A DNA stretch of 64,000 nucleotides from an uncultured Rhizobium sp. (GTDB taxonomy: Bacteria; Pseudomonadota; Alphaproteobacteria; Rickettsiales; UBA1997). The stretch covers positions 61,195-125,194 of the forward strand of contig CAZICL010000003.1 in assembly GCA_964537735.1 (NCBI GenBank), read 5' to 3'. The notes under the pieces are model-generated. The model was not told the origin of the DNA. It saw only the letters and a list, made by a program, of their open reading frames with translations, and did no database searches. Positions 12,612 to 53,167 of this stretch are shown piece by piece. Made by a program: the position numbers and the translations under genes. The number at the start of each line of letters is the position of its first letter. Position 1 is the first letter of the stretch.

Positions 12612-13991
12612 TTATTTTTTAGCCAGAAGACTATGGCGATAGCCGTAACCGAAGTAAACCAATAGACCAAGAATTGACCAGATCATAAAATAAATACCAC
12701 TTTCAACTAGTAAATCATAAGCCAAATAAGAACAGCTAATAATTGCCAAAGGTGCGACGATGTTAATTGCCGGACATTTGAAAGAGCGCGGTAATTCTGG
12801 ATGGCTGAATCGCAAAATCAAAACTCCAATCGCCACTACAATGAAAGAAACCAAAGTTCCCAAACTGGTTAAATGACTTAATGTTTTAAGCGGAAAAAAT
12901 CCCGAAACTAAAGCGACTACAATTGAAACTGCAACAACTGCAATATAAGGGGTGTTAAATTTCTTGTGCAACTTGCTGAAAGGTGCAGGAATCAGACCAT
13001 CACGCGACATGACAAAGAAAATGCGCGACTGCCCATAAATCAAAATTAATAAAACCGAAGTAATGCCGGCGATCGCTCCGGTAGCAACTAAAGCTGACCC
13101 AATATTGCTACCATTGTCTCTAAGAGCACGAGCTAAAGGCTCAGCGTTATTCAATGTGTCATAGCTGACGATTCCAGTCAGAACCAAAGACACGGCAACA
13201 TAAAGAACAGCACAAACCACTGCCGAAACAATAATTCCAATCGGCAAATCTCTTTTGGGATTTTTACATTCTTCTGCAGCAGTAGCCACCGCATCAAAGC
13301 CAATGTAAGCATAGAAAACCGTGGCCGCACCAATAAAAATTCCTGAAATACCAAAAGGAGCAAAATTAGACCAGTTCTCAACCTTCACCATGGGAACAGC
13401 AATAATTAAAAATAGAAAAATAACGCCAATTTTGATCGAAACTAAAATACGGTTAAAAGTGACGCTTTCTTTAGTACCGCGATAAAGCAAAAATCCGATA
13501 AAAAGTGCGATCAAAACTGCCGGCAAATTAATGATGCCACCATTTGCTGGTGAATTGGCTAAATAGGTTGGCAGATCAATTCCTCCCGTTTTTAAAATAC
13601 CCACCATATAGCCAGACCAACCTGAGGAAACCGTTGCCGCACCAATGGCATATTCAAGAATCAAACCCCAGCCAACTAACCAGGCCACAAATTCACCAAG
13701 AATGGCATAAGAATAAGTATAAGCGCTTCCGGCAACTGGAACCATCGATGCCAATTCAGCATAAGCCAGACCAGCAAAAATACAGGCCATAGCTGCTAAA
13801 AAATATGATATTGCGATAGCTGGACCAGCATAATTGGCAGCAGCAATTCCGGTAACCACAAAAATTCCGGTACCAATTGTACAACCAACGCCAATCATTA
13901 CTAAATCAAAAGCGCCGAGAGTTTTCTTAAGCGTGTTTTTTTCAGCATTAGCTAAAATTTCTTGAATAGTTTTTTTGCGCAGAAGGGACAT
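12612..13991 (-). CDS. APC-superfamily amino acid permease (cationic amino acid transporter-like), paralog 1
   Basis: 459 aa with about 12 predicted TM segments. Motifs GCTIGTGIFV, AGSAYTYSY, FDAVATAAEECKNPKRDLP. Confidence 0.9.
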   Translation of the reverse strand: MSLLRKKTIQEILANAEKNTLKKTLGAFDLVMIGVGCTIGTGIFVVTGIAAANYAGPAIAISYFLAAMACIFAGLAYAELASMVPVAGSAYTYSYAILGEFVAWLVGWGLILEYAIGAATVSSGWSGYMVGILKTGGIDLPTYLANSPANGGIINLPAVLIALFIGFLLYRGTKESVTFNRILVSIKIGVIFLFLIIAVPMVKVENWSNFAPFGISGIFIGAATVFYAYIGFDAVATAAEECKNPKRDLPIGIIVSAVVCAVLYVAVSLVLTGIVSYDTLNNAEPLARALRDNGSNIGSALVATGAIAGITSVLLILIYGQSRIFFVMSRDGLIPAPFSKLHKKFNTPYIAVVAVSIVVALVSGFFPLKTLSHLTSLGTLVSFIVVAIGVLILRFSHPELPRSFKCPAINIVAPLAIISCSYLAYDLLVESGIYFMIWSILGLLVYFGYGYRHSLLAKK

Positions 13992-14175: not shown

Positions 14176-15552
14176 TTATTTGAGAGGGCTTTTTCTATAA
14201 CCGTAAAAAATATAAACCAAAATGCCGATAGCAAACCAGATGGCGAAAGGAATACCGGTTTTAAGCAATAAATCATACATCAAATAACCACAGCTTAATA
14301 TGGCCATTGGAGCAACAAAGAAAACTGCCGGACATCTAAATGATCTGTTAAGTTCTGGCTTCTTGATGCGCAATATCAAGACCCCAAAAGACACTATCAC
14401 GAAAGCAAATAAAATACCCAAACTACTCATATTTCCCATAGTATGAATTGGTGTAAAACCAGCAACCAACATCACGGCGATAGTTACAAAAATGCATCCC
14501 AAATATGGAGTACCATATTTTTTATGTAATTTGCCGAAAGATTGAGGAATCAAACCATCACGCGCCATCACGAAAAAAATACGTGACTGACCATACATTA
14601 AGACCAATAAAACGGCCAACATACCAGCAATAGCTCCGGTTCCGACCAATGCCGATCCAACATTGCTGCCATTAACACGTAAAGCATAAGCCATAGGTTC
14701 AGGGCTATCCAATTCTGAAAAATGAACAATCCCAGTTAGAACCAAAGAAACAATTACGTAAAGCACTGCACATACAGATAAACCACCGATGATTCCAATC
14801 GGTAAATCTCTTTTTGGATTTTTACATTCCTCAGCAGTGGTTGCTACCGCATCAAAACCAAGATAAGCGAAGAAAATAGCCGCTGCTCCAGCACCGACAC
14901 CCTGCCAACCAAAAGGCATAAAATTAGAATAATTTTCCATTTTCACATGAGGTGCAGCAATAATCAAAAATAGGAAAATCACCGCCAGTTTAATTGCCAC
15001 TAAAATACGGTTTACCATCACGCTCTCTTTAGTTCCAACCGTCAATAAAGAACCGATAAATAGAGCAACGCAAACTGCCGGAAGATTGATAATGCCACCA
15101 TCAGAAGGAACTCTGGTTAAAGATTCTGGGAGATGAATTCCACCCTCACCTAACAAACCCACTAAATATCCTGACCAACCAGCTGAAACAGTAGAAGCAG
15201 CAACAGTATATTCTAAAATCAAACCCCAGGCAACCAACCAGGCAACAAACTCTCCCATAGTTGCATAAGAATATGTATAAGCACTTCCGGCGACCGGAAC
15301 CATAGCTGCAAGCTCAGTGTAGGCCAAAGCCGCAAACATACAGGCAATACCAGCTAAAACATAAGAAATAGAAATTGCCGGACCAGCATATTTTGCTGCG
15401 GCGATTCCAGTTAAAACAAAAATTCCAGTACCAATAGTACAACCAATGCCGAACAAGATAAGATCAAGTGGCCCAAGGGTTTTTTTCAAAGAGTTTTTCT
15501 TAGCTCCAGCAATAATGCTCTCAATACTTTTTGTACGAAGTGATAGTTTCAT
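14176..15552 (-). CDS. APC-superfamily amino acid permease, paralog 2
   Basis: 458 aa, colinear with the neighbouring permease. Roughly two-thirds identical by eye and carries the same motifs. Confidence 0.9.
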   Translation of the reverse strand: MKLSLRTKSIESIIAGAKKNSLKKTLGPLDLILFGIGCTIGTGIFVLTGIAAAKYAGPAISISYVLAGIACMFAALAYTELAAMVPVAGSAYTYSYATMGEFVAWLVAWGLILEYTVAASTVSAGWSGYLVGLLGEGGIHLPESLTRVPSDGGIINLPAVCVALFIGSLLTVGTKESVMVNRILVAIKLAVIFLFLIIAAPHVKMENYSNFMPFGWQGVGAGAAAIFFAYLGFDAVATTAEECKNPKRDLPIGIIGGLSVCAVLYVIVSLVLTGIVHFSELDSPEPMAYALRVNGSNVGSALVGTGAIAGMLAVLLVLMYGQSRIFFVMARDGLIPQSFGKLHKKYGTPYLGCIFVTIAVMLVAGFTPIHTMGNMSSLGILFAFVIVSFGVLILRIKKPELNRSFRCPAVFFVAPMAILSCGYLMYDLLLKTGIPFAIWFAIGILVYIFYGYRKSPLK

Positions 15553-31637: not shown

Positions 31638-31652
31638 ATAAAAATTCTTTGA

Positions 31653-31742
31653 TTTAGCATTTAACCTTTATGAGACTGTCGCAAATCAAACTTTTCGTCG
31701 AATCTGGTTTTACACGATTCTAAATGATAAAGGTTAAATGCT
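31653..31742. repeat. inverted repeat carrying the TTAGCATTTAAC / GTTAAATGCT motif
   Basis: AGCATTTAACCTTTAT (31656-31671) and ATAAAGGTTAAATGCT (31727-31742) are perfect reverse complements separated by 55 nt. They lie between the spoT stop and the start of the 85-aa membrane ORF. Confidence 0.75.
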
Positions 31743-33911: not shown

Positions 33912-33927
33912 TATGCGAAATTTAACA

Positions 33928-33986
33928 TTGATGATTTCACATTTAGCAATTCATCAAATGTGAGATGATCAAATGCTAAATGCTAA
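33928..33986. repeat. imperfect 17-bp hairpin plus AAATGCTAAATGCTAA heptamer copies in the rpoZ-spoT spacer
   Basis: TTGATGATTTCACATTT (33928-33944) pairs with AAATGTGAGATGATCAA (33956-33972), 15 of 17 positions. This is followed by AAATGCTAAATGCTAA (33971-33986). Confidence 0.65.
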
Positions 33987-34414: not shown

Positions 34415-34446
34415 CATTTAGCATTAACATTTAGCATTTAACATTT
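34415..34446. repeat. tandem CATTTAGCATT(T)AA copies in the rpoZ/map divergent intergenic region
   Basis: The sequence catttagcattaacatttagcatttaacattt reads (YTAAATG)n toward rpoZ, about 80-110 nt upstream of its ATG. Confidence 0.65.
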
Positions 34447-39343: not shown

Positions 39344-40021
39344 TTAACCGATAAGGCTTTCAAACATTGTAAGACCATCTCGTGAGCCATTTTTATCAGC
39401 AGCTCTTTCCGGATGCGGCATCATGCCTAAAACATTCTTTTTATCATTAAAAATTCCCGCAATATTAAGCGCTGATCCATTGGGATTGGCTTCATCAGTG
39501 ACATTTCCATTAACGTCAACATAGCGGAAAGCTACATTTCCATTACCTTCGATTTTTTTTAGCGTTTCAGTATCCGCAAAAAAATTACCGTCCATATGAG
39601 CAATTGGCACTCGAATCACCTGGTTCTTTTTATATTTTGCAGTGAAGCAACTATTACTATCTTCAACACGCAATAACATCTCACGACAAATAAATTTTCC
39701 CTTTTGATTACGCATCAAAACGCCGTCAAGCAATCCGGCTTCGGTCAAAATTTGAAAGCCGTTACAAATTCCTAAAATTTTCGTGCCCCGTTCTGCAATT
39801 CTTTTTACTTCCTGCATCACTGAAGAAATTGAGGCCATAGCGCCACTGCGCAAATAATCGCCATAAGAAAATCCACCCGGAACCACGATTAAATCGAAAT
39901 CATTTTCAATTGAAGTTTCCTGATGCCAGATTTTTGTAACTTTAGCACCAACTTTTTGCAAAGTGGTAACCGCATCGCGATCACAATTTGAGCCGGGAAA
40001 AACGATAACTGCTGCTTTCAT
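39344..40021 (-). CDS. purQ: phosphoribosylformylglycinamidine synthase, glutaminase subunit PurQ
   Basis: [19 protein letters not shown] (nucleophile Cys), MPHPER. Confidence 0.9.
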
Positions 40022-40032
40022 GCCTAAAAAAT

Positions 40033-40278
40033 TTAAGAGATAACTTCGTATTTATAGTCTTCGATAACTTTGTTAACGAGTAACTTGTCACAAATTTCAT
40101 CAACAATATTTTGAATTTTAGTTGAATCAGTTTCGCTAATATCAAGTTCTACAACCTTACCTTGCCTAACTTGCGATATTTGTGCAAAGCCAAGATTTTT
40201 TTGCAAAGAAGTTTCAATCGCTTTGCCTTGAGTGTCCAAAACGCCTTTTTTCAGCGTTATAATTATTCTGATTTTCAT
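40033..40278 (-). CDS. purS: phosphoribosylformylglycinamidine synthase subunit PurS
   Basis: 81 aa, KKGVLDTQGKAIE motif, located between purC and purQ. Confidence 0.8.
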   Translation of the reverse strand: MKIRIIITLKKGVLDTQGKAIETSLQKNLGFAQISQVRQGKVVELDISETDSTKIQNIVDEICDKLLVNKVIEDYKYEVIS

Positions 40279-40280
40279 GA

Positions 40281-41000
40281 TTAATTAATTTTAATTCCCA
40301 AACGAGAGGCCACGTCAGAGTAAACCTCAACCAAATCTCCCAGATCTCTTCTGAAAACATCTTTGTCAAGTTTTTGCGCGGTTTTCTCGTCCCAAAGCCT
40401 ACAGCTATCAGGACTTATCTCGTCAGCAAGGGTAATCTTTTCGCGCGCATCAAATCCAAACTCTATCTTAAAATCAACCAATTTAATACCGATATTTTTA
40501 AAAATTTGTTGCAGCACTTGATTGATTTTAAGCGCGTATTTTTTGATCTCATCAAGCTGTTCTTTTGTTACAACTTGCAAAACATTAATGGCGTGATCGT
40601 CATTAATTAGTGGATCACCAAGCGCATCATCTTTGTAACAAATTTCAAAAATAGGCGCTAATAATTCAACACCTTCTTCAATTCCCAAACGCTTAGCCAT
40701 TGATCCGGCAGCCACATTGCGAATAATTACTTCCAGTGGAATAATCTTCATCTTACGCACCAACTGTTCGCGTTCATTCAACCTTTTTTCAAAATGAGTT
40801 GGAATGCCGACCTTGGCCATTTCCAACATAATATGTTCGGAAATAAAATTATTCAAAACTCCTTTGCCACCAATGACTGCCTTCTTTTGTGCATTAAATG
40901 CCGTGGCATCATCTTTGAAATATTGAATCAAAAGATTATCGTCTGCAGTTTTAAAAAGTTGCTTGGCTTTGCCTTCGTAAATTTTTTCTAATTTGTTCAT
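40281..41000 (-). CDS. purC: phosphoribosylaminoimidazole-succinocarboxamide (SAICAR) synthase
   Basis: YEGKAKQLF, PLEVIIRN, LVDFKIEFG, ADEISPDSCRLWD. Confidence 0.9.
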   Translation of the reverse strand: MNKLEKIYEGKAKQLFKTADDNLLIQYFKDDATAFNAQKKAVIGGKGVLNNFISEHIMLEMAKVGIPTHFEKRLNEREQLVRKMKIIPLEVIIRNVAAGSMAKRLGIEEGVELLAPIFEICYKDDALGDPLINDDHAINVLQVVTKEQLDEIKKYALKINQVLQQIFKNIGIKLVDFKIEFGFDAREKITLADEISPDSCRLWDEKTAQKLDKDVFRRDLGDLVEVYSDVASRLGIKIN

Positions 41001-41026
41001 TTTTGTTTAATTTATTTTTACTAGTA

Positions 41027-41214
41027 AACCGACACCTCGCTTTTCTCACTTGTAATATCGGACGATGCGTCACCTGGGCTTGCGTCGCTTCGCTCCTGAG
41101 CCCGATTAAAGCTAGGTTGCTAAGACTGAACCTCGACACATCGCTTTTCTCACTGCGTTCGAAGACGATGCGTCGCCTGGGCTTGCGTCGCTTCGCTCCT
41201 GAGCCCGATTAAAG
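41027..41214. repeat. two tandem copies of a GC-rich ~82-bp element (about 41027-41111 and 41129-41214)
   Basis: Direct comparison of the two copies. The 5' ~21 nt (cgacacNtcgcttttctcact) and the 3' 51 nt (gacgatgcgtcRcctgggcttgcgtcgcttcgctcctgagcccgattaaag) differ by one base each. A central 9-10 nt is unrelated between copies. Confidence 0.85.
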
Positions 41215-41251
41215 ATAAAAACGTGCGTTTAGCACGTTTTTATCTTTAATC
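41207..41251 (-). terminator. strong hairpin, probable intrinsic (bidirectional) terminator after hemF
   Basis: gattaaagataaaaacgtgc / gcacgtttttatctttaatc form a perfect 20-bp inverted repeat with a 5-nt loop. The GC core (ACGTGC/GCACGT) is flanked by T-runs on both strands. The right arm overlaps the hemF stop codon. Confidence 0.7.
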
Positions 41252-42106
41252 CCACTTAGCAACTGGTGGTAATGACATCAGAATCGCTTCAGTATTTCCA
41301 CCAGTCATCAAGCCAAATTTAGTGCCACGGTCATATACCAAATTAAATTCAGCATATAATCCGCGTTTTCTTAATTGGTGTTCACGCTGCTCGTCACTCC
41401 ATTTTTCAAACATGTGACGGCGCACTAGCTTCGGGAAAATTTCCAAGAAAGCCAAACCTACATCTTTGGTAAAATCAAAGTCAGCAGAAAAATTTTCCGA
41501 ATTTAAATAATCAAAAAAAATCCCGCCGACTCCACGAGCACAATTTCTATGTTTGATGAAAAAATATTCATCACACCACTTTTTATATTTATCATAATAT
41601 TGAGGAGAAGCTTTGTCACAAGCCACTTTGAAGGCATTGTGAAAATCTTTTGTATCTTCTTCATTTTCAAACATCGGGTTTAAATCAGCACCACCACCAA
41701 ACCAATTTTTTGTAGTACAAATAAAACGAGTATTCATGTGAATGGCCGGAACTAAAGGCGATTGCATATGCGCCACCAAAGAAATTCCACTAGCCCAAAA
41801 TGCTGGGTTTTCTTCAGCTCCCGGAATTTGTTTTTTAAATTCTTCTGAAAAATTACCAAAAACCTTAGAAAAATTCACCCCAACTTTTTCAAAGACATTA
41901 CCTTTCATAAGCGAAATTTCACCGCTGCCACCATCAACTCCCGCAATATCTTGGCGATTCCAATTTTTGCGCTGAAATTTCCCTGGATTATTTAAGTTAT
42001 TTGTCGCCGCAAATTCTGCTTCAATTTTTTCAAATTCGGCACAAATTTTATCGCGCAAATCACCAAACCATTGCGAGGTAATTTGCTGTTTTTCTTCAAG
42101 ATTCAT
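41246..42106 (-). CDS. hemF: oxygen-dependent coproporphyrinogen III oxidase
   Basis: The conserved body starts at internal ATG 42106 (MNLEEKQQITSQWF...). Motifs GGGADLNP, RGVGGIFFDY, RRGLYAEFNLVYDRGTKFGL. The longer ORF (to 42274) would overlap tyrS. Confidence 0.9.
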   Translation of the reverse strand: MNLEEKQQITSQWFGDLRDKICAEFEKIEAEFAATNNLNNPGKFQRKNWNRQDIAGVDGGSGEISLMKGNVFEKVGVNFSKVFGNFSEEFKKQIPGAEENPAFWASGISLVAHMQSPLVPAIHMNTRFICTTKNWFGGGADLNPMFENEEDTKDFHNAFKVACDKASPQYYDKYKKWCDEYFFIKHRNCARGVGGIFFDYLNSENFSADFDFTKDVGLAFLEIFPKLVRRHMFEKWSDEQREHQLRKRGLYAEFNLVYDRGTKFGLMTGGNTEAILMSLPPVAKWD

Positions 42107-51790: not shown

Positions 51791-53053
51791 TTATTTTTTT
51801 AACTCTGACTTAATTTTATCAAATCCGACAATGCCGGAAACTTTACCAATTGCTGCAAATGTTGGCTTTGATCCGCTAAAAATTTCTTCAGCCATTTTTA
51901 CCACATCAGATTTTTTTACGGCCAAAACCTGATTCATAATTTCTTTATCCAGAATCAAACGGTTAAACGATAAAATATCACCGCCGAGTTTTTGCATACG
52001 TGTACTGGTGCTTTCTTTAGACATCAACAAGCTTGCCTCAAACTGATTGCGCACTCTTTTTAATTCAGCATCGGAAACTTTTTCGCAGATCTTTTTTATC
52101 TCGCCACAAGTTGCACTAATAAGCTCGTTGGTCTTCTCCGGCGTGGTTCCAGCATAAATACCAAACAACCCGGAATCAAAATGCGAATAGTTAAAAGCAT
52201 AAACTGAATAAGCCAAACCGCGGTTTTCACGCACTTCTTGGAATAAACGCGATGACATGCCACCTCCCAAAACCATAGCCAAAATCTGTGCTGTGTAATA
52301 ATCTGAGTCGTTGTAGGACTTGCCTTTGAAGCCCATTACCAAGTTAATCTGCTCCAATTTTTTTTCTTTACGAAAATCGCCACTAATATATTTTGCTCGC
52401 TGCGGAAGTTTGATTTTACTATCTCCAAGCTGGTTAAAATATTTCTTCGACCATTTTACCAAATCACTTTGTTTAATATTGCCGGCAGCAACTACACACA
52501 TATTTTGGTAGTTATATTGCTTACCAATATAATCGACAAAATGCTGACGCGAGAATTTCTTAATATTTTTTATTGGCCCTAAAATTGAACGCCCCAGTGC
52601 CTGATCTGCATAAGCCGCCTCTTGAAAATAATCGAAAACAATATCGTCAGGAGTATCGTTAGTCATGGCAATTTCTTGCAAAATCACGCCGCGTTCTTTT
52701 TCCAATTCAACCTTGTCAAAAGTGGAATTTTGCAAAATATCGGCCAGAAATTCGACGGCAAATTCAGCATGTTTTTTCAACACCTTGGCGTAATAAACCG
52801 TTTTTTCTTTAGAAGTATAAGCATTGATACGACCGCCAATTCCTTCAAATTCTTCAGCAATTTGACGTGCTGATCTTTTAGCGGTGCCTTTAAAGGCCAT
52901 ATGCTCAAGGAAGTGTGAAATACCATTAATTTCAGGAGTTTCGTTGCGACTTCCAGTATTGACAAACACACCAACTGAAACCGTTTCAACATCTTTCATT
53001 TCATCAACCCCAACACGCAAACCGTTAGGTAAAGTAATTATTTCTTTGGTCAT
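51791..53053 (-). CDS. M16-family zinc peptidase (mitochondrial processing peptidase-like)
   Basis: Inverted zinc motif HFLEHMAFKGT, downstream E in REVILQEI-like VILQEI. 420 aa. Confidence 0.85.
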   Translation of the reverse strand: MTKEIITLPNGLRVGVDEMKDVETVSVGVFVNTGSRNETPEINGISHFLEHMAFKGTAKRSARQIAEEFEGIGGRINAYTSKEKTVYYAKVLKKHAEFAVEFLADILQNSTFDKVELEKERGVILQEIAMTNDTPDDIVFDYFQEAAYADQALGRSILGPIKNIKKFSRQHFVDYIGKQYNYQNMCVVAAGNIKQSDLVKWSKKYFNQLGDSKIKLPQRAKYISGDFRKEKKLEQINLVMGFKGKSYNDSDYYTAQILAMVLGGGMSSRLFQEVRENRGLAYSVYAFNYSHFDSGLFGIYAGTTPEKTNELISATCGEIKKICEKVSDAELKRVRNQFEASLLMSKESTSTRMQKLGGDILSFNRLILDKEIMNQVLAVKKSDVVKMAEEIFSGSKPTFAAIGKVSGIVGFDKIKSELKK

Positions 53054-53167
53054 TTAGCATTTAAGATTTAGCATTTAACATTTGGAAAATCTGAGTTGTC
53101 GGCTTCATTTCCAAGCCAATTTCACGATTAATCAAATGTTAAATGCTAAATGTTAAATGCTAAATGA
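53051..53167. promoter_or_regulatory. mirror-image (YTAAATG)n heptamer arrays bracketing a divergent intergenic region
   Basis: 53051-53083 CATTTAGCATTTAAGATTTAGCATTTAACATTT is the reverse complement of 53135-53167 AAATGTTAAATGCTAAATGTTAAATGCTAAATG with one mismatch. The outermost CAT/ATG are the start codons of the two flanking genes. Confidence 0.8.

Follow-up and report, generated by a model that had tools for sequence, protein, structure and literature searches.

Between hemF and purC, the 64-kb window (the whole stretch of DNA that was analysed) carries a GC-rich repeat for which an earlier note had considered three explanations: a small RNA with a defined structure, a palindromic element of the dispersed REP/RPE-like kind, or a module that binds protein. 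The question raised by this locus is which of these descriptions applies, on which strand the element acts and whether it has any bearing on the expression of the neighbouring genes.

Locus and duplicated units

The genes hemF (coproporphyrinogen III oxidase, 41246..42106), purC (SAICAR synthase, 40281..41000), purS (40033-40278) and purQ (39344-40021) are all carried by the minus strand, so that the relevant reading of the locus is the reverse complement. The assignment of hemF was based on a PF01218 call on the identical contig L001, the ORF list and the sequence, and that of the downstream gene purC on the ORF list and a PF01259 call; purS and then purQ follow, and the family calls PF01259, PF02700 and GATase cover purC, purS and purQ. 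The hemF stop codon is located at 41246-41248, the last codons (TGG GAT TAA) opening the 5' arm of the hairpin T described below, and its distance to the purC ATG in the sequence is 245 nt, the gap length given in the earlier note. A consensus promoter scan revealed no sigma-70-like promoter across this gap, including the AT-rich part that leads from the last hairpin to the purC ATG (41001..41029, minus strand), and the TTGCAG that follows the hairpin H2 in one subfamily is, by reading, without a -10 element at usable spacing. On the plus strand, no promoter-like site was found near 41000-41030. The GC skew of the plus strand is uniformly negative across the region and a skew switch is absent from the 64-kb window, indicating that the locus is neither an origin nor a terminus of replication.

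The GC-rich tandem duplication upstream of purC was recovered by a repeat search at the place where it had been described. Units A and B are 85-86 nt each and lie 103/104 nt apart, which bears out the announced spacing of ~104 nt. They share a block of 54 nt (41061-41114 and 41164-41217; 96% identity, spacing 103) and a block of 21 nt (41030-41050 and 41134-41154; 95% identity, spacing 104), and the 9-10 nt between the two blocks are unalignable (tgtaatatcg versus gcgttcgaa on the plus strand), in agreement with the central difference noticed before. The G+C content amounts to 54.7% in unit A and 57.6% in unit B, compared to 38.3% for the window and 35-37% for the flanking genes, and these values are compatible with the previous estimate of ~58%. 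The duplicated segment starts within the 3' arm of hairpin T (CTTTAATC). Searches by patterns with up to 3 mismatches, nhmmer and blastn-short detected 2 copies only in the 64-kb window and 0 in shuffled sequence. A coding reading of the repeats was rejected: their periods, 103/104 nt here and ~68, 82 and 100 nt in relatives, do not keep to multiples of three, and the sole ATG-initiated mini-ORF, that of unit B, is lost in unit A. No tRNA- or tmRNA-like gene was detected by ARAGORN in 40800-41400.

Hairpin modules of the spacer

Each unit is composed of two hairpins, H1 and H2, on the minus strand, preceded by a terminator-like hairpin T; all the coordinates below refer to this strand. T (GAUUAAAGAUAAAAACGUGC-UAAAC-GCACGUUUUUAUCUUUAAUC, 41207..41251), recognised as an inverted repeat, is a perfect 20-bp hairpin and is unique in the window. 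Its inner core (~41217-41241) has the look of a bidirectional intrinsic terminator (A5, CGUGC/GCACG, U5), while in its outer stem the linker is paired with the region of the hemF stop codon. The consensus terminator scan did not call T, although CGUGC-UAAAC-GCACG followed by U5 is readable in the sequence, probably because the A5 and U5 tracts were counted as, or absorbed into, the extended stem. The "hemF terminator" of the earlier note does exist as a hairpin, but it belongs to the element family as one of its modules, and it extends over the hemF stop codon.

H1 copy B (GGGCU-CAGGAGC-GAA-GCGACGCA-AGCCC, 41179..41206), delimited from the fold and the sequence, is closed by a 5-bp stem, above which come an asymmetric internal loop, tandem G.A pairs and a GC/GC stem capped by a GAA triloop (GCGAAGC motif). 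H2 copy B (41134..41175) is intact according to the covariance model R1 (65.9 bits), the fold and the covariation. It combines an 11-bp stem (CGACGCAUCGU/GCGAUGUGUCG), a bulged C and a 3-bp helix (UUC/GAA) with tandem G.A pairs, an AC/GU stem, a GCA triloop and a bulged AA on the 3' side. A non-repeated spacer of ~20 nt, defined by the sequence and the repeat search (41114..41133), separates unit B from unit A and is followed by a second copy of the linker (AGCUUUAAUC, 41104..41113), which repeats the end of the T 3' arm and forms the 5' edge of the duplicated unit. By pattern search and sequence, H1 copy A (41076..41103) is identical to H1 copy B, and GCGAAGC, which agrees in sequence with the GCGNAGC motif, stands at the apex of both. 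H2 copy A (41030..41072) is decaying: with 48.6 bits it is the lowest of the 22 R1 matches, another sequence (CGAUAUUACA) stands in for the 5' half of its apical helix, the tandem G.A has disappeared and an A.G mismatch interrupts the stem at one pair. The folding of unit A is no better than that of shuffled sequence (z = +0.09). The earlier description of conserved flanks around a hypervariable core does not hold, since what looked like a core is the 5' half of the helix at the H2 apex, which copy B and all the relatives keep intact and which is destroyed in copy A.

Covariation and strand of the fold

Folding of the hemF-purC gap as sense RNA gave -87.8 kcal/mol (z = -5.8). As the antisense RNA (z = -5.2) and a fold with DNA parameters (z = -6.3) also fall at about -5 to -6, the folding energy is uninformative for the strand, and the asymmetry of the G.U and G.A pairs was used instead.

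Covariation analysis revealed compensatory changes in T, H1 and H2. By such changes, relatives maintain the pairing of the hairpins that make up the two halves of the unit, in support of the structured-element option of the earlier note. Across 9 lineages, 97.4% of the cells of T are paired and double changes occur in 7 of its 23 pairs; none of 500 shuffles reached these values and slid controls were 31-45% paired. The outer stem of T covaries with the hemF stop codon (GAUUGAUGCU/AGCAUCAAUC in L037, GAUUAAGGC/GCCUUAAUC in L038; L numbers designate loci). The closing stem of H1 is found in relatives as GGGGU/ACCCC, GGGAU/AUCCC, GGGCA/UGCCC, GGGCGA/UCGCCC and GGGCAG/CUGCCC. For H2, double changes were observed in 5 of 15 pairs, one pair being seen as GC, UA, CG and UG, and the apex reads GCGAAGC, GCGCAGC or GCAAAGC in relatives. 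The tandem GA/GA is kept in 12 of the 13 distinct H2 sequences, the single row without it being H2 copy A of the window, and the unpaired C and the AA are invariant. The H2 core contains 18 G.U pairs versus 1 A.C. These G.U pairs and the conserved tandem G.A pairs support a placement of the predicted fold on the strand that transcribes hemF and purC.

Distribution and copy number in relatives

T-H1-H2 modules are present in the same gap of relatives with 78-95% purC identity, where their sequences and arrangements differ, and the carriers belong to a clade of uncultured freshwater and groundwater Alphaproteobacteria. In 774,592 bases of window and related loci, all the matches of the covariance model (22/22) were located in the hemF-purC gap on the sense strand, and HMM matches were confined to the same gap in 897,525 bases. 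Given this restriction over 775-900 kb, the dispersed REP/RPE-like option of the earlier note finds no support in this lineage. Within the window and related loci covered, carrier genomes account for ~177 kb, in which a dispersed family of less than ~1 copy per 50 kb could escape.

Strains with identical PurC may carry unequal copies: L104 has 3 H2 and L105 has 2, and L108 has 1.5 units compared to 2.5 in L109. The duplicated linker is also found in L017 and L027. The hemF-purC gap is only 4-25 nt long in L022, L028, L043, L050-54 and L057, L040 carries a 5' remnant of T only, and T is absent from relatives keeping hemF beside purC. Carriers and non-carriers are interleaved in the purC tree, and the region from H2 to purC is not conserved among carriers. 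In some close relatives, the gap is occupied by unrelated palindromic repeats. These palindromes are themselves truly dispersed, with three copies in 7.4 kb of L026 and two in L037, and they occur in both L034 and L085.

The modules are folded, maintained by compensatory changes, restricted to one locus, variable in copy number and dispensable; their sharing among relatives, the compensatory changes and the short or replaced gaps indicate an element that is old as well. The regulation of purC implied by the earlier note finds no support in L022 and L028, in which the gap is merely 4-13 nt at 84-90% purC identity. The element is not a purine-sensing riboswitch and purC expression does not require it. 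The ancestral element is a single composite T-H1-H2.

Search for known families

The earlier statement that no known RNA family could be recognised is in agreement with the lack of any Rfam match in the gap at E <= 10. At the gathering score, no Rfam match was found at the element in the 64-kb window and in 7 carrier loci, and the 12 cross-phylum loci gave none either; the families concerned include the ZTP, purine and PRPP riboswitches and alphaproteobacterial sRNAs. Similarity searches against plasmids and phages gave no matches, and a scan of viral contigs with an 18-mer of the cap gave a single match, which does not indicate a phage link. Several resemblances were rejected. The plus-strand string CGCCTGGGC resembles the ZTP 3' consensus, but it stands on the wrong strand for purC and no model matched. 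The likeness to the Firmicute PurBox or the E. coli PurR box depends on a CGAAC core limited to the window and the L016 lineage. A boxA/nut-like reading of the linker GCUUUAAUC was abandoned: the linker does not preserve a boxA consensus but changes together with the hemF stop region (AGCAUCAAUC in L037). CsrA-type GGA sites and a likeness to SRP helix 8 in H1 are not conserved among the H1 variants of relatives. A kink-turn fits the 5' strand of H1 (GGGCU-CAG-GA-GC), but on the opposite strand 4 additional nt (CGCA) separate GA from the closing stem; H2 has Watson-Crick pairs on either side of its G.A pairs. A CRISPR array was discarded since the inter-repeat spacers are identical to one another in L104, L027 and L017 and the window contains only 2 units.

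Comparison with known repeat systems

REP/BIME elements are known to stabilise the mRNA that precedes them, to lower the expression of what follows and, when near a stop codon, to influence the termination of translation. The modules resemble the REP/BIME of enterobacteria, which are co-transcribed, in being GC-rich imperfect hairpins in intergenic or intercistronic position, often directly after a stop codon, and in forming mosaic tandem arrays with strain-variable copy number. They differ in that REP/BIME have hundreds of dispersed copies, a GTAG-type head and RAYT mobilisation, whereas the hemF-purC element is restricted to one locus and no GTAG adjoins H1 or H2 by reading of the sequences. 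Membership of REP/BIME by dispersal was rejected, the matches in 775-900 kb (~177 kb from carriers) being found in the gap only.

In Correia (CREE, Neisseria) and ERIC/IRU elements, the long hairpins formed in the mRNA serve as substrates of RNase III; they alter both the stability of the transcript and its termination. The likeness lies in palindromic inserts of ~100-150 nt within transcription units, T being here a perfect 20-bp RNA duplex. Correia elements number in the hundreds, end in terminal inverted repeats and are accompanied by a duplicated TA target; the hemF-purC element shows nothing of the kind. Rickettsia palindromic elements (RPE) are also palindromic repeats of ~100-150 nt in Alphaproteobacteria, but they are dispersed and typically in frame in coding genes, whereas the present element is intergenic and at a single locus. 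An assignment to MITE, Correia or RPE was rejected, as the T arms covary as an inverted pair (TTGA...TCAA in L037), not as a direct duplication, and dispersal is lacking.

By reading of the sequence, the core of T resembles intrinsic terminators in its 5-bp GC-rich stem, 5-nt loop, U5 tail and preceding A5 (bidirectional design). Unlike them, T continues into a 20-bp duplex in which the stop codon is contained, and it precedes more hairpins and then a co-oriented gene without detectable promoter. The C-G-closed GNA triloops, especially GCGAAGC, are classic hyperstable DNA mini-hairpins; the GCGAAGC/GCGNAGC motif (Hirao) was defined on DNA oligonucleotides and occurs at ssDNA initiation sites and origins (PMC13037366). 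The H1 and H2 caps are exactly GC-GAA-GC or GC-GCA-GC, beside tandem G.A pairs, but here they are carried by the transcribed strand between two genes and the likeness is at the sequence level only.

Proposed role of the array

We tentatively propose, with a confidence that falls just short of even, that the duplication of the window is a recent, strain-level tandem event inside a one-locus stem-loop array, and that this array is a structural RNA-level insert in the hemF-purCSQ transcript. In element-free relatives, hemF and purC are 4-25 nt apart, which implies one operon and makes an RNA-level insert the most likely status of the array. An array of sense-strand stem-loops would fill the hemF-purC intercistronic spacer in a lineage-specific manner. 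T could be responsible for partial (leaky) termination or could serve as a processing site, and H1 and H2, predicted to be very stable hairpins with tandem G.A pairs and GNA triloop caps, would mark the ends of the mRNA segments on either side and shield them, acting as an insulator and mRNA-end stabiliser. The pairing would be under selection because a long untranslated operon spacer that did not fold would be open to Rho-dependent polarity and to attack by RNases. The copy number may drift through slippage, or through unequal recombination of the direct repeats, and one of the two unit copies (copy A, beside purC) is already decaying. The function of the array may therefore be like that of REP/BIME or Correia elements, although these are dispersed and the hemF-purC element is not. 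RNA-level action, read-through of T and processing are all steps that we infer; the predicted folding energy fails to separate the strands (z = -5.8 for sense, -5.2 for antisense), and the repeated loss fits a neutral or selfish insert equally well.

Such an insert would be a selfish or neutral MITE/REP-like multi-hairpin sequence, landed once in the hemF-purC spacer, possibly by horizontal transfer, and without host function; local slippage would amplify it, repeated deletion would remove it and the hairpins would be kept by intrastrand templated repair or by the harm of unfolded inserts. The occupation of the same gap by unrelated, genuinely dispersed palindromes elsewhere (L026, L037, L034, L085), the presence of 26 identical nt of H1 in a dispersed ~120-nt Verrucomicrobiae repeat, the repeated losses and the decay of copy A in the window are all in agreement with this origin. 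A second locus was nevertheless not found in 775-900 kb and a target-site duplication is absent, the outer stem of T covarying with the hemF stop as an inverted pair and not as a direct repeat. Moreover, the invariance of the unpaired C, AA and GA/GA while the stems change points to constraint in place over ~20% purC divergence, and we regard this origin as unlikely, though with an appreciable chance of being correct. It is improbable that the hairpins act as ssDNA on the lagging-strand template, as a primase or primosome signal, a recombinase/HUH site or a hotspot of replication or slippage. The caps correspond exactly to the GCGAAGC and GCGCAGC hyperstable DNA mini-hairpins (PMC13037366), the structured strand is G-rich and, as the plus-strand GC skew is uniformly negative, is presumed to be the lagging-strand template, the DNA-parameter fold has a z of -6.3 and the copy number is unstable. 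This activity would leave the A-tract/stem/U-tract design of T without reason, since a transcription terminator is sensible for RNA only; the invariant U.G and other wobble pairs are better tolerated in RNA, no GC-skew switch occurs at the locus and no associated enzyme gene was identified.

The remaining possibilities concern regulation by, or transcription from, the spacer. Tandem architectures exist for some riboswitches, and the layout of the array, directly upstream of purCSQ and with structured, conserved unpaired nucleotides, recalls them. A tandem-duplicated cis-regulatory leader of purC (riboswitch, attenuator or RNA-binding-protein site sensing purines) is very improbable, however, as the element is wholly absent from close relatives with gaps of 4-25 nt, its copies vary among strains with identical PurC and the unit nearest purC is degenerate. 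The order of the modules is also wrong for a leader, with the terminator-like hairpin ahead of the other hairpins and not behind them, and the gap, in which Rfam had no match at E <= 10, contains simple hairpins only, with no multi-helix junction or pocket. A small RNA gene, either on the plus strand, where it would be antisense to the 5' end of purC with H2'-H1' ending at T, or released from the 3' UTR of hemF, could make use of the U-tract that T has in both orientations, and the antisense strand folds well (z = -5.2). The antisense reading turns the conserved G.A and G.U pairs into C.U and A.C mismatches; with no plus-strand promoter-like site near 41000-41030, an unconserved H2-purC region and a variable copy number, such a gene is scarcely to be expected. 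Equally slight is the chance that repeated palindromes such as GACGCATCGTC form a dsDNA operator array for a transcription factor of purC or hemF. Short palindromes do occur within the unit and the sites are repeated, but the palindromic halves are explained by covarying partners ~30 nt away, conserved G.A mismatches are meaningless in duplex DNA and GACGCATCGTC is not conserved in relatives (CGCGAGTCGTC, CGCAAGTTGTC).

If the RNA-level insert proposed above is correct, the locus would be a clean natural example of a one-locus intercistronic hairpin array, similar to REP/BIME or Correia elements in function and not dispersed. Its structure is held over ~20% divergence of the neighbouring protein, yet copies shift between near-identical strains and whole lineages have lost it. 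This combination would provide a useful test of whether pairing is selected for regulation or for keeping an untranslated operon spacer harmless. For annotation purposes, the GC-rich island upstream of purC should not be described as a riboswitch.

The H1 cap in other phyla

The 26 nt of the H1 cap (GGCTCAGGAGCGAAGCGACGCAAGCC) are identical to part of a dispersed repeat in the Verrucomicrobiae MAG CAVURW01. This multi-hairpin repeat of ~120 nt (loci L004, L008, L010, L013 and L014) is present in at least 6 copies on 5 contigs and in both orientations. It is similar to the hemF-purC element by the succession of the GGCTCAGGAGCGAAGCGACGCAAGCC hairpin and a AAAAAAGCGAC segment and by its GAA- and GAAA-capped hairpins, and it differs by its dispersal, by its outer stem (CCCAGGCU/AGCCUGGG) and by the lack of any match to the H2 covariance model. 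H1 and H2 share the cap form N-GA-GC-GNA-GC-GA-N', of which CAGGAGCGAAGCGACGCA is the H1 version. Over 20-26 nt, the CAGGAGCGAAGCGACGCA cap is identical in Alphaproteobacteria, Verrucomicrobiae, Bacteroidales, Lachnospira and Bradyrhizobium, and the enclosing stems differ each time.

It is conceivable, though improbable, that the cap is a portable recognition module for a conserved putative RNA- or ssDNA-binding factor and that the array is a copy-tunable domesticated attenuator setting the haem:purine expression ratio; these streamlined bacteria would then possess an attenuator acting on haem versus purine biosynthesis. A literature search on the GAGCGAAGCGA motif returned primer matches only. 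Independently of the role of the array, the identity of the H1 cap across phyla is a small separate lead, which points to a widespread, as yet undescribed cap motif of hairpins in the intergenic repeats of bacteria.

A duplicated GC-rich unit between hemF and purC

The segment 41027-41214 holds an 85-86-nt unit present in two copies. A repeat search of the window recovered two blocks, one of 54 nt (96% identity between the copies, spacing 103), the other of 21 nt (95% identity, spacing 104), with 9-10 nt that cannot be aligned between them. The units reach 54.7% and 57.6% G+C, whereas the whole window is at 38.3% and the flanking genes lie near 36%. The two-copy GC-rich duplication of the earlier note was accurately described. 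No third copy was found in the 64-kb window by searches with up to 3 mismatches, nhmmer or blastn-short, and shuffled sequence gave zero matches to the unit, so the duplicated element is real and not due to chance. On the minus strand the gene order is hemF (41246-42106, PF01218), a gap of 245 nt, purC (40281-41000, PF01259), purS and purQ. The window belongs to a 154.8-kb groundwater metagenome contig and the hemF-purC gap is identical in three further contigs. The PurC homologues are assigned by their source records to Alphaproteobacteria, Rickettsiales or Pelagibacterales MAGs.

Hairpins of the transcribed strand

On the transcribed (minus) strand, the gap is opened by a perfect 20-bp hairpin, T (41207-41251), whose 5' arm starts within the last hemF codons and takes in the hemF stop codon. 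Its core, A5-CGUGC-UAAAC-GCACG-U5, has the design of a predicted bidirectional intrinsic terminator. T is followed by the repeat units, each made of two hairpins, H1 and H2, and the duplicated segment opens with CUUUAAUC, a copy of the final 8 nt of the T 3' arm. H1 reads GGGCU-CAGGAGC-GAA-GCGACGCA-AGCCC. In copy B, the hemF-proximal unit, H2 has a stem of 11 bp followed by a bulged C, then a 3-bp helix and tandem G.A pairs, then a 2-bp helix with a GCA triloop; it also has an AA bulge. What the earlier note saw as a hypervariable core corresponds to the 5' half of the apical helix in H2, intact in copy B and replaced in copy A, which adjoins purC; it is not a programmed variable region. The replacement costs copy A three base pairs as well as the tandem G.A motif, and its folding does not surpass that of shuffled sequence (z = +0.09, versus -1.44 for copy B).

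Arrangement and copy number in relatives

Syntenic loci were retrieved via PurC homologues, a further 80 loci came from scanning metagenome contigs with protein guidance, and the hemF-purC gap was compared across about 45 lineages. T, a linker, H1 and H2 share this gap in lineages at 78-95% PurC identity, in varying arrangements: T-H1-H2-H1-H2 in the window, T-H1-H2-T-H1 in L016, T-H1-H2 in L102, T-(H1-H2)x2 in L017, T-H1-H2x3 in L104, T-H1-H2x2 in L105 and T-H1a-H2-H2-T'-H1b-H2 in L019. There are 2.5 units in L027 and L109 and 1.5 in L108, single composites with extras in L037 and L038, and T with a decayed H1 in L041. Since the number of units differs between contigs with exactly identical PurC (L104 vs L105; L108 vs L109), the tandem state of the window derives from an older single composite by a change in copy number. 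Four independent assemblies (L002, L018, L021 and L025) break inside the repeats, 102-105 nt upstream of purC, which fits k-mer assembly breaks at tandem repeats; in such contigs the repeat number may be collapsed.

In one subfamily an extra GC-rich hairpin is inserted in the T 5' arm, giving a branched T (L017:9755-9785; L019:9605-9625; L104:2690-2715; L038, about 1830-1850). Examples are ACGGC-UUCA-GCCGU, GCGGC-AAA-GCCGC and a longer one capped by GCA, and the stem covaries (A-U versus G-C).

Compensatory changes in the stems

The covariation analysis proposed in the earlier note revealed compensatory changes in T, H2 and H1. For T, 97.4% of the cells are paired across nine lineages and 7 of the 23 pairs show double-sided changes, values reached by none of 500 shuffles; sliding the partner cuts pairing to 31-45%. 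The outer stem of T covaries with the hemF stop codon, UAA/UUUAAUC becoming UGA/CAUCAAUC in L037. In H2, RNAalifold detected compensatory changes in 4 of 10 pairs and a covariance-model alignment (22 copies, 13 distinct) double changes in 5 of 15, one pair being found as GC, UA, CG and UG. The closing stem of H1 occurs as GGGCU/AGCCC, GGGGU/ACCCC, GGGAU/AUCCC, GGGCA/UGCCC, GGGCGA/UCGCCC and GGGCAG/CUGCCC. No variation occurs in the unpaired C, the AA bulge or the tandem GA/GA, with copy A of the window as the sole exception. On this comparative evidence, the structure of the element is taken to be under selection.

Identity of the element and nature of the folded strand

No Rfam family matched the gap even at E <= 10, or the window and 7 carrier loci at the gathering score, and neither a tRNA-like gene at the element, nor plasmid or phage similarity, nor a GC-skew switch, nor a sigma-70-like promoter on either strand of the gap was detected. 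A coding repeat was rejected because the repeat periods vary and are not divisible by three, leaving no consistent reading frame. A dispersed repeat was also rejected: a unit HMM (897,525 bases) and an H2 covariance model (774,592 bases) gave matches confined to the hemF-purC gap, every one of them on the sense strand. About 177 kb of the DNA searched comes from genomes carrying the element, which makes a density above about one copy per 50 kb unlikely, though there may be a low-copy family. Of the interpretation in the earlier note, the structured and palindromic character stands; the REP/RPE-like dispersal, for which the copy search of the window had also returned two copies only, does not, and a purC sensor or riboswitch was rejected.

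Folding energies do not separate the strands (z of -5.8 and -5.2 for sense and antisense RNA, -6.3 and -5.9 for DNA). The H2 core holds 18 G.U pairs against 1 A.C, and its conserved G.A pairs would read C.U on the opposite strand; this asymmetry identifies the folded strand as the one transcribed with hemF and purC. The hairpins may nevertheless act as single-stranded DNA, the GCGAAGC and GCGCAGC caps being classic hyperstable DNA mini-hairpins (PMC13037366) and the folded strand being the G-rich one, presumed to be the lagging-strand template, but the terminator design of T and an invariant U.G pair favour RNA.

Loss of the element and a possible role in the operon

Several close relatives are devoid of the element: hemF and purC are 13 nt apart in L022 (90% PurC identity) and 4 nt apart in L028, and 7-34 nt separate them in L032, L043, L050-54 and L057. 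These tight gaps indicate that hemF and purCSQ were ancestrally one operon. In a PurC neighbour-joining tree, carriers are interleaved with non-carriers, and all that is left in L040, the sister of the carrier L037, is the 5' part of T; this distribution is most simply explained if the ancestor had the element and it was lost repeatedly. In other relatives the gap is filled by unrelated palindromic repeats such as GTCATCCTGAGCGAAAGCGAAGGATC... and GGACCCCGTCA..., which are dispersed over the contigs they occur in, with three copies in 7.4 kb in L026 (3632-3703, 5882-5973, 6733-6804), two in L037 (4632-4710, 5874-5950), one family common to L034 (5843-5965) and L085 (51-215), and one repeat in L023 (3070-3160). 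The gap is thus a place where hairpin repeats have repeatedly landed or been retained. L106 (86% PurC identity) has no repeat between hemF and purC and carries there a 376-aa gene with a weak LRR match (1865-2995).

The otherwise tight operon, the terminator-like start, the lack of a detectable promoter after it and the fold on the mRNA strand lead us to propose, with confidence falling slightly short of even, that the element is an RNA-level structural insert in the hemF-purCSQ operon. T would give partial termination, possibly modulated by the ribosome terminating at the stop codon inside its 5' arm, and as a 20-bp duplex it could be a processing site; the mRNA pieces so formed would be capped at their ends by H1 and H2. 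Pairing might be kept only so that the long untranslated spacer stays folded, which would keep nucleases out and prevent Rho-dependent polarity. The number of copies would shift by slippage between direct repeats and surplus copies, such as copy A, would decay. REP/BIME and Correia elements behave in this way, but the element fits neither: it is not dispersed, no GTAG head of the REP/BIME kind is seen next to H1 or H2, and it lacks the terminal repeats plus target duplication of Correia elements. As a hairpin repeat between genes combined with a predicted intrinsic terminator, it belongs to a known kind of feature. That it is structured, locus-specific, variable, dispensable and not a riboswitch is much firmer than the mechanism.

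The H1 cap in other phyla

The cross-phylum distribution of the H1 cap, the hairpin apex with its GNA triloop and tandem G.A pairs, is the sole part of the finding that could prove more than ordinary. In a scan of one genome per species, its 20-mer CAGGAGCGAAGCGACGCAAG gave 12 exact matches in unrelated phyla, for a chance expectation estimated at roughly 1-3 in that collection. They lie in five contigs of the Verrucomicrobiae MAG CAVURW01 (L004, L008, L010, L013, L014), in Bacteroidales (2), Lachnospira (2), Bradyrhizobium (1), Acidimicrobiaceae (1) and Planctomycetota (1), with L005/L006, L011/L015 and L007 among the loci outside that MAG; the two high-G+C single matches may be due to chance. 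In most of the 12, a different complementary stem encloses the motif. The Verrucomicrobiae hairpin, 26 nt of which are identical to H1, belongs to a dispersed repeat of about 120 nt comprising several hairpins with GAA or GAAA caps, and the Lachnospira 20-mer is found about 65 nt downstream of a tRNA gene. The unrelated gap repeats of the relatives likewise hold GAGCGNAGCGA-type caps. No Rfam family was found at the cross-phylum sites and no mention of the motif in the literature searched. These data suggest one of two things: H1 is derived from a mobile repeat module, or the cap is reused widely as a hairpin end and may be recognised specifically.

Other repeats of the window

The AT-rich motif TTAACATTTAGCATTTAAC recurs in several intergenic places (31648-31670, 33922-33944, 34424-34446, 53047-53091 and 53126-53167) and forms an inverted repeat at 53050-53167, where the two arms of 42 nt are 90% complementary; the motif is a candidate shared operator or regulatory site. 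The tandem segments 12945-13788 and 14503-15346 share 72-80% identity, with the spacing constant at 1558 nt, and most likely mark a pair of tandem paralogous genes.
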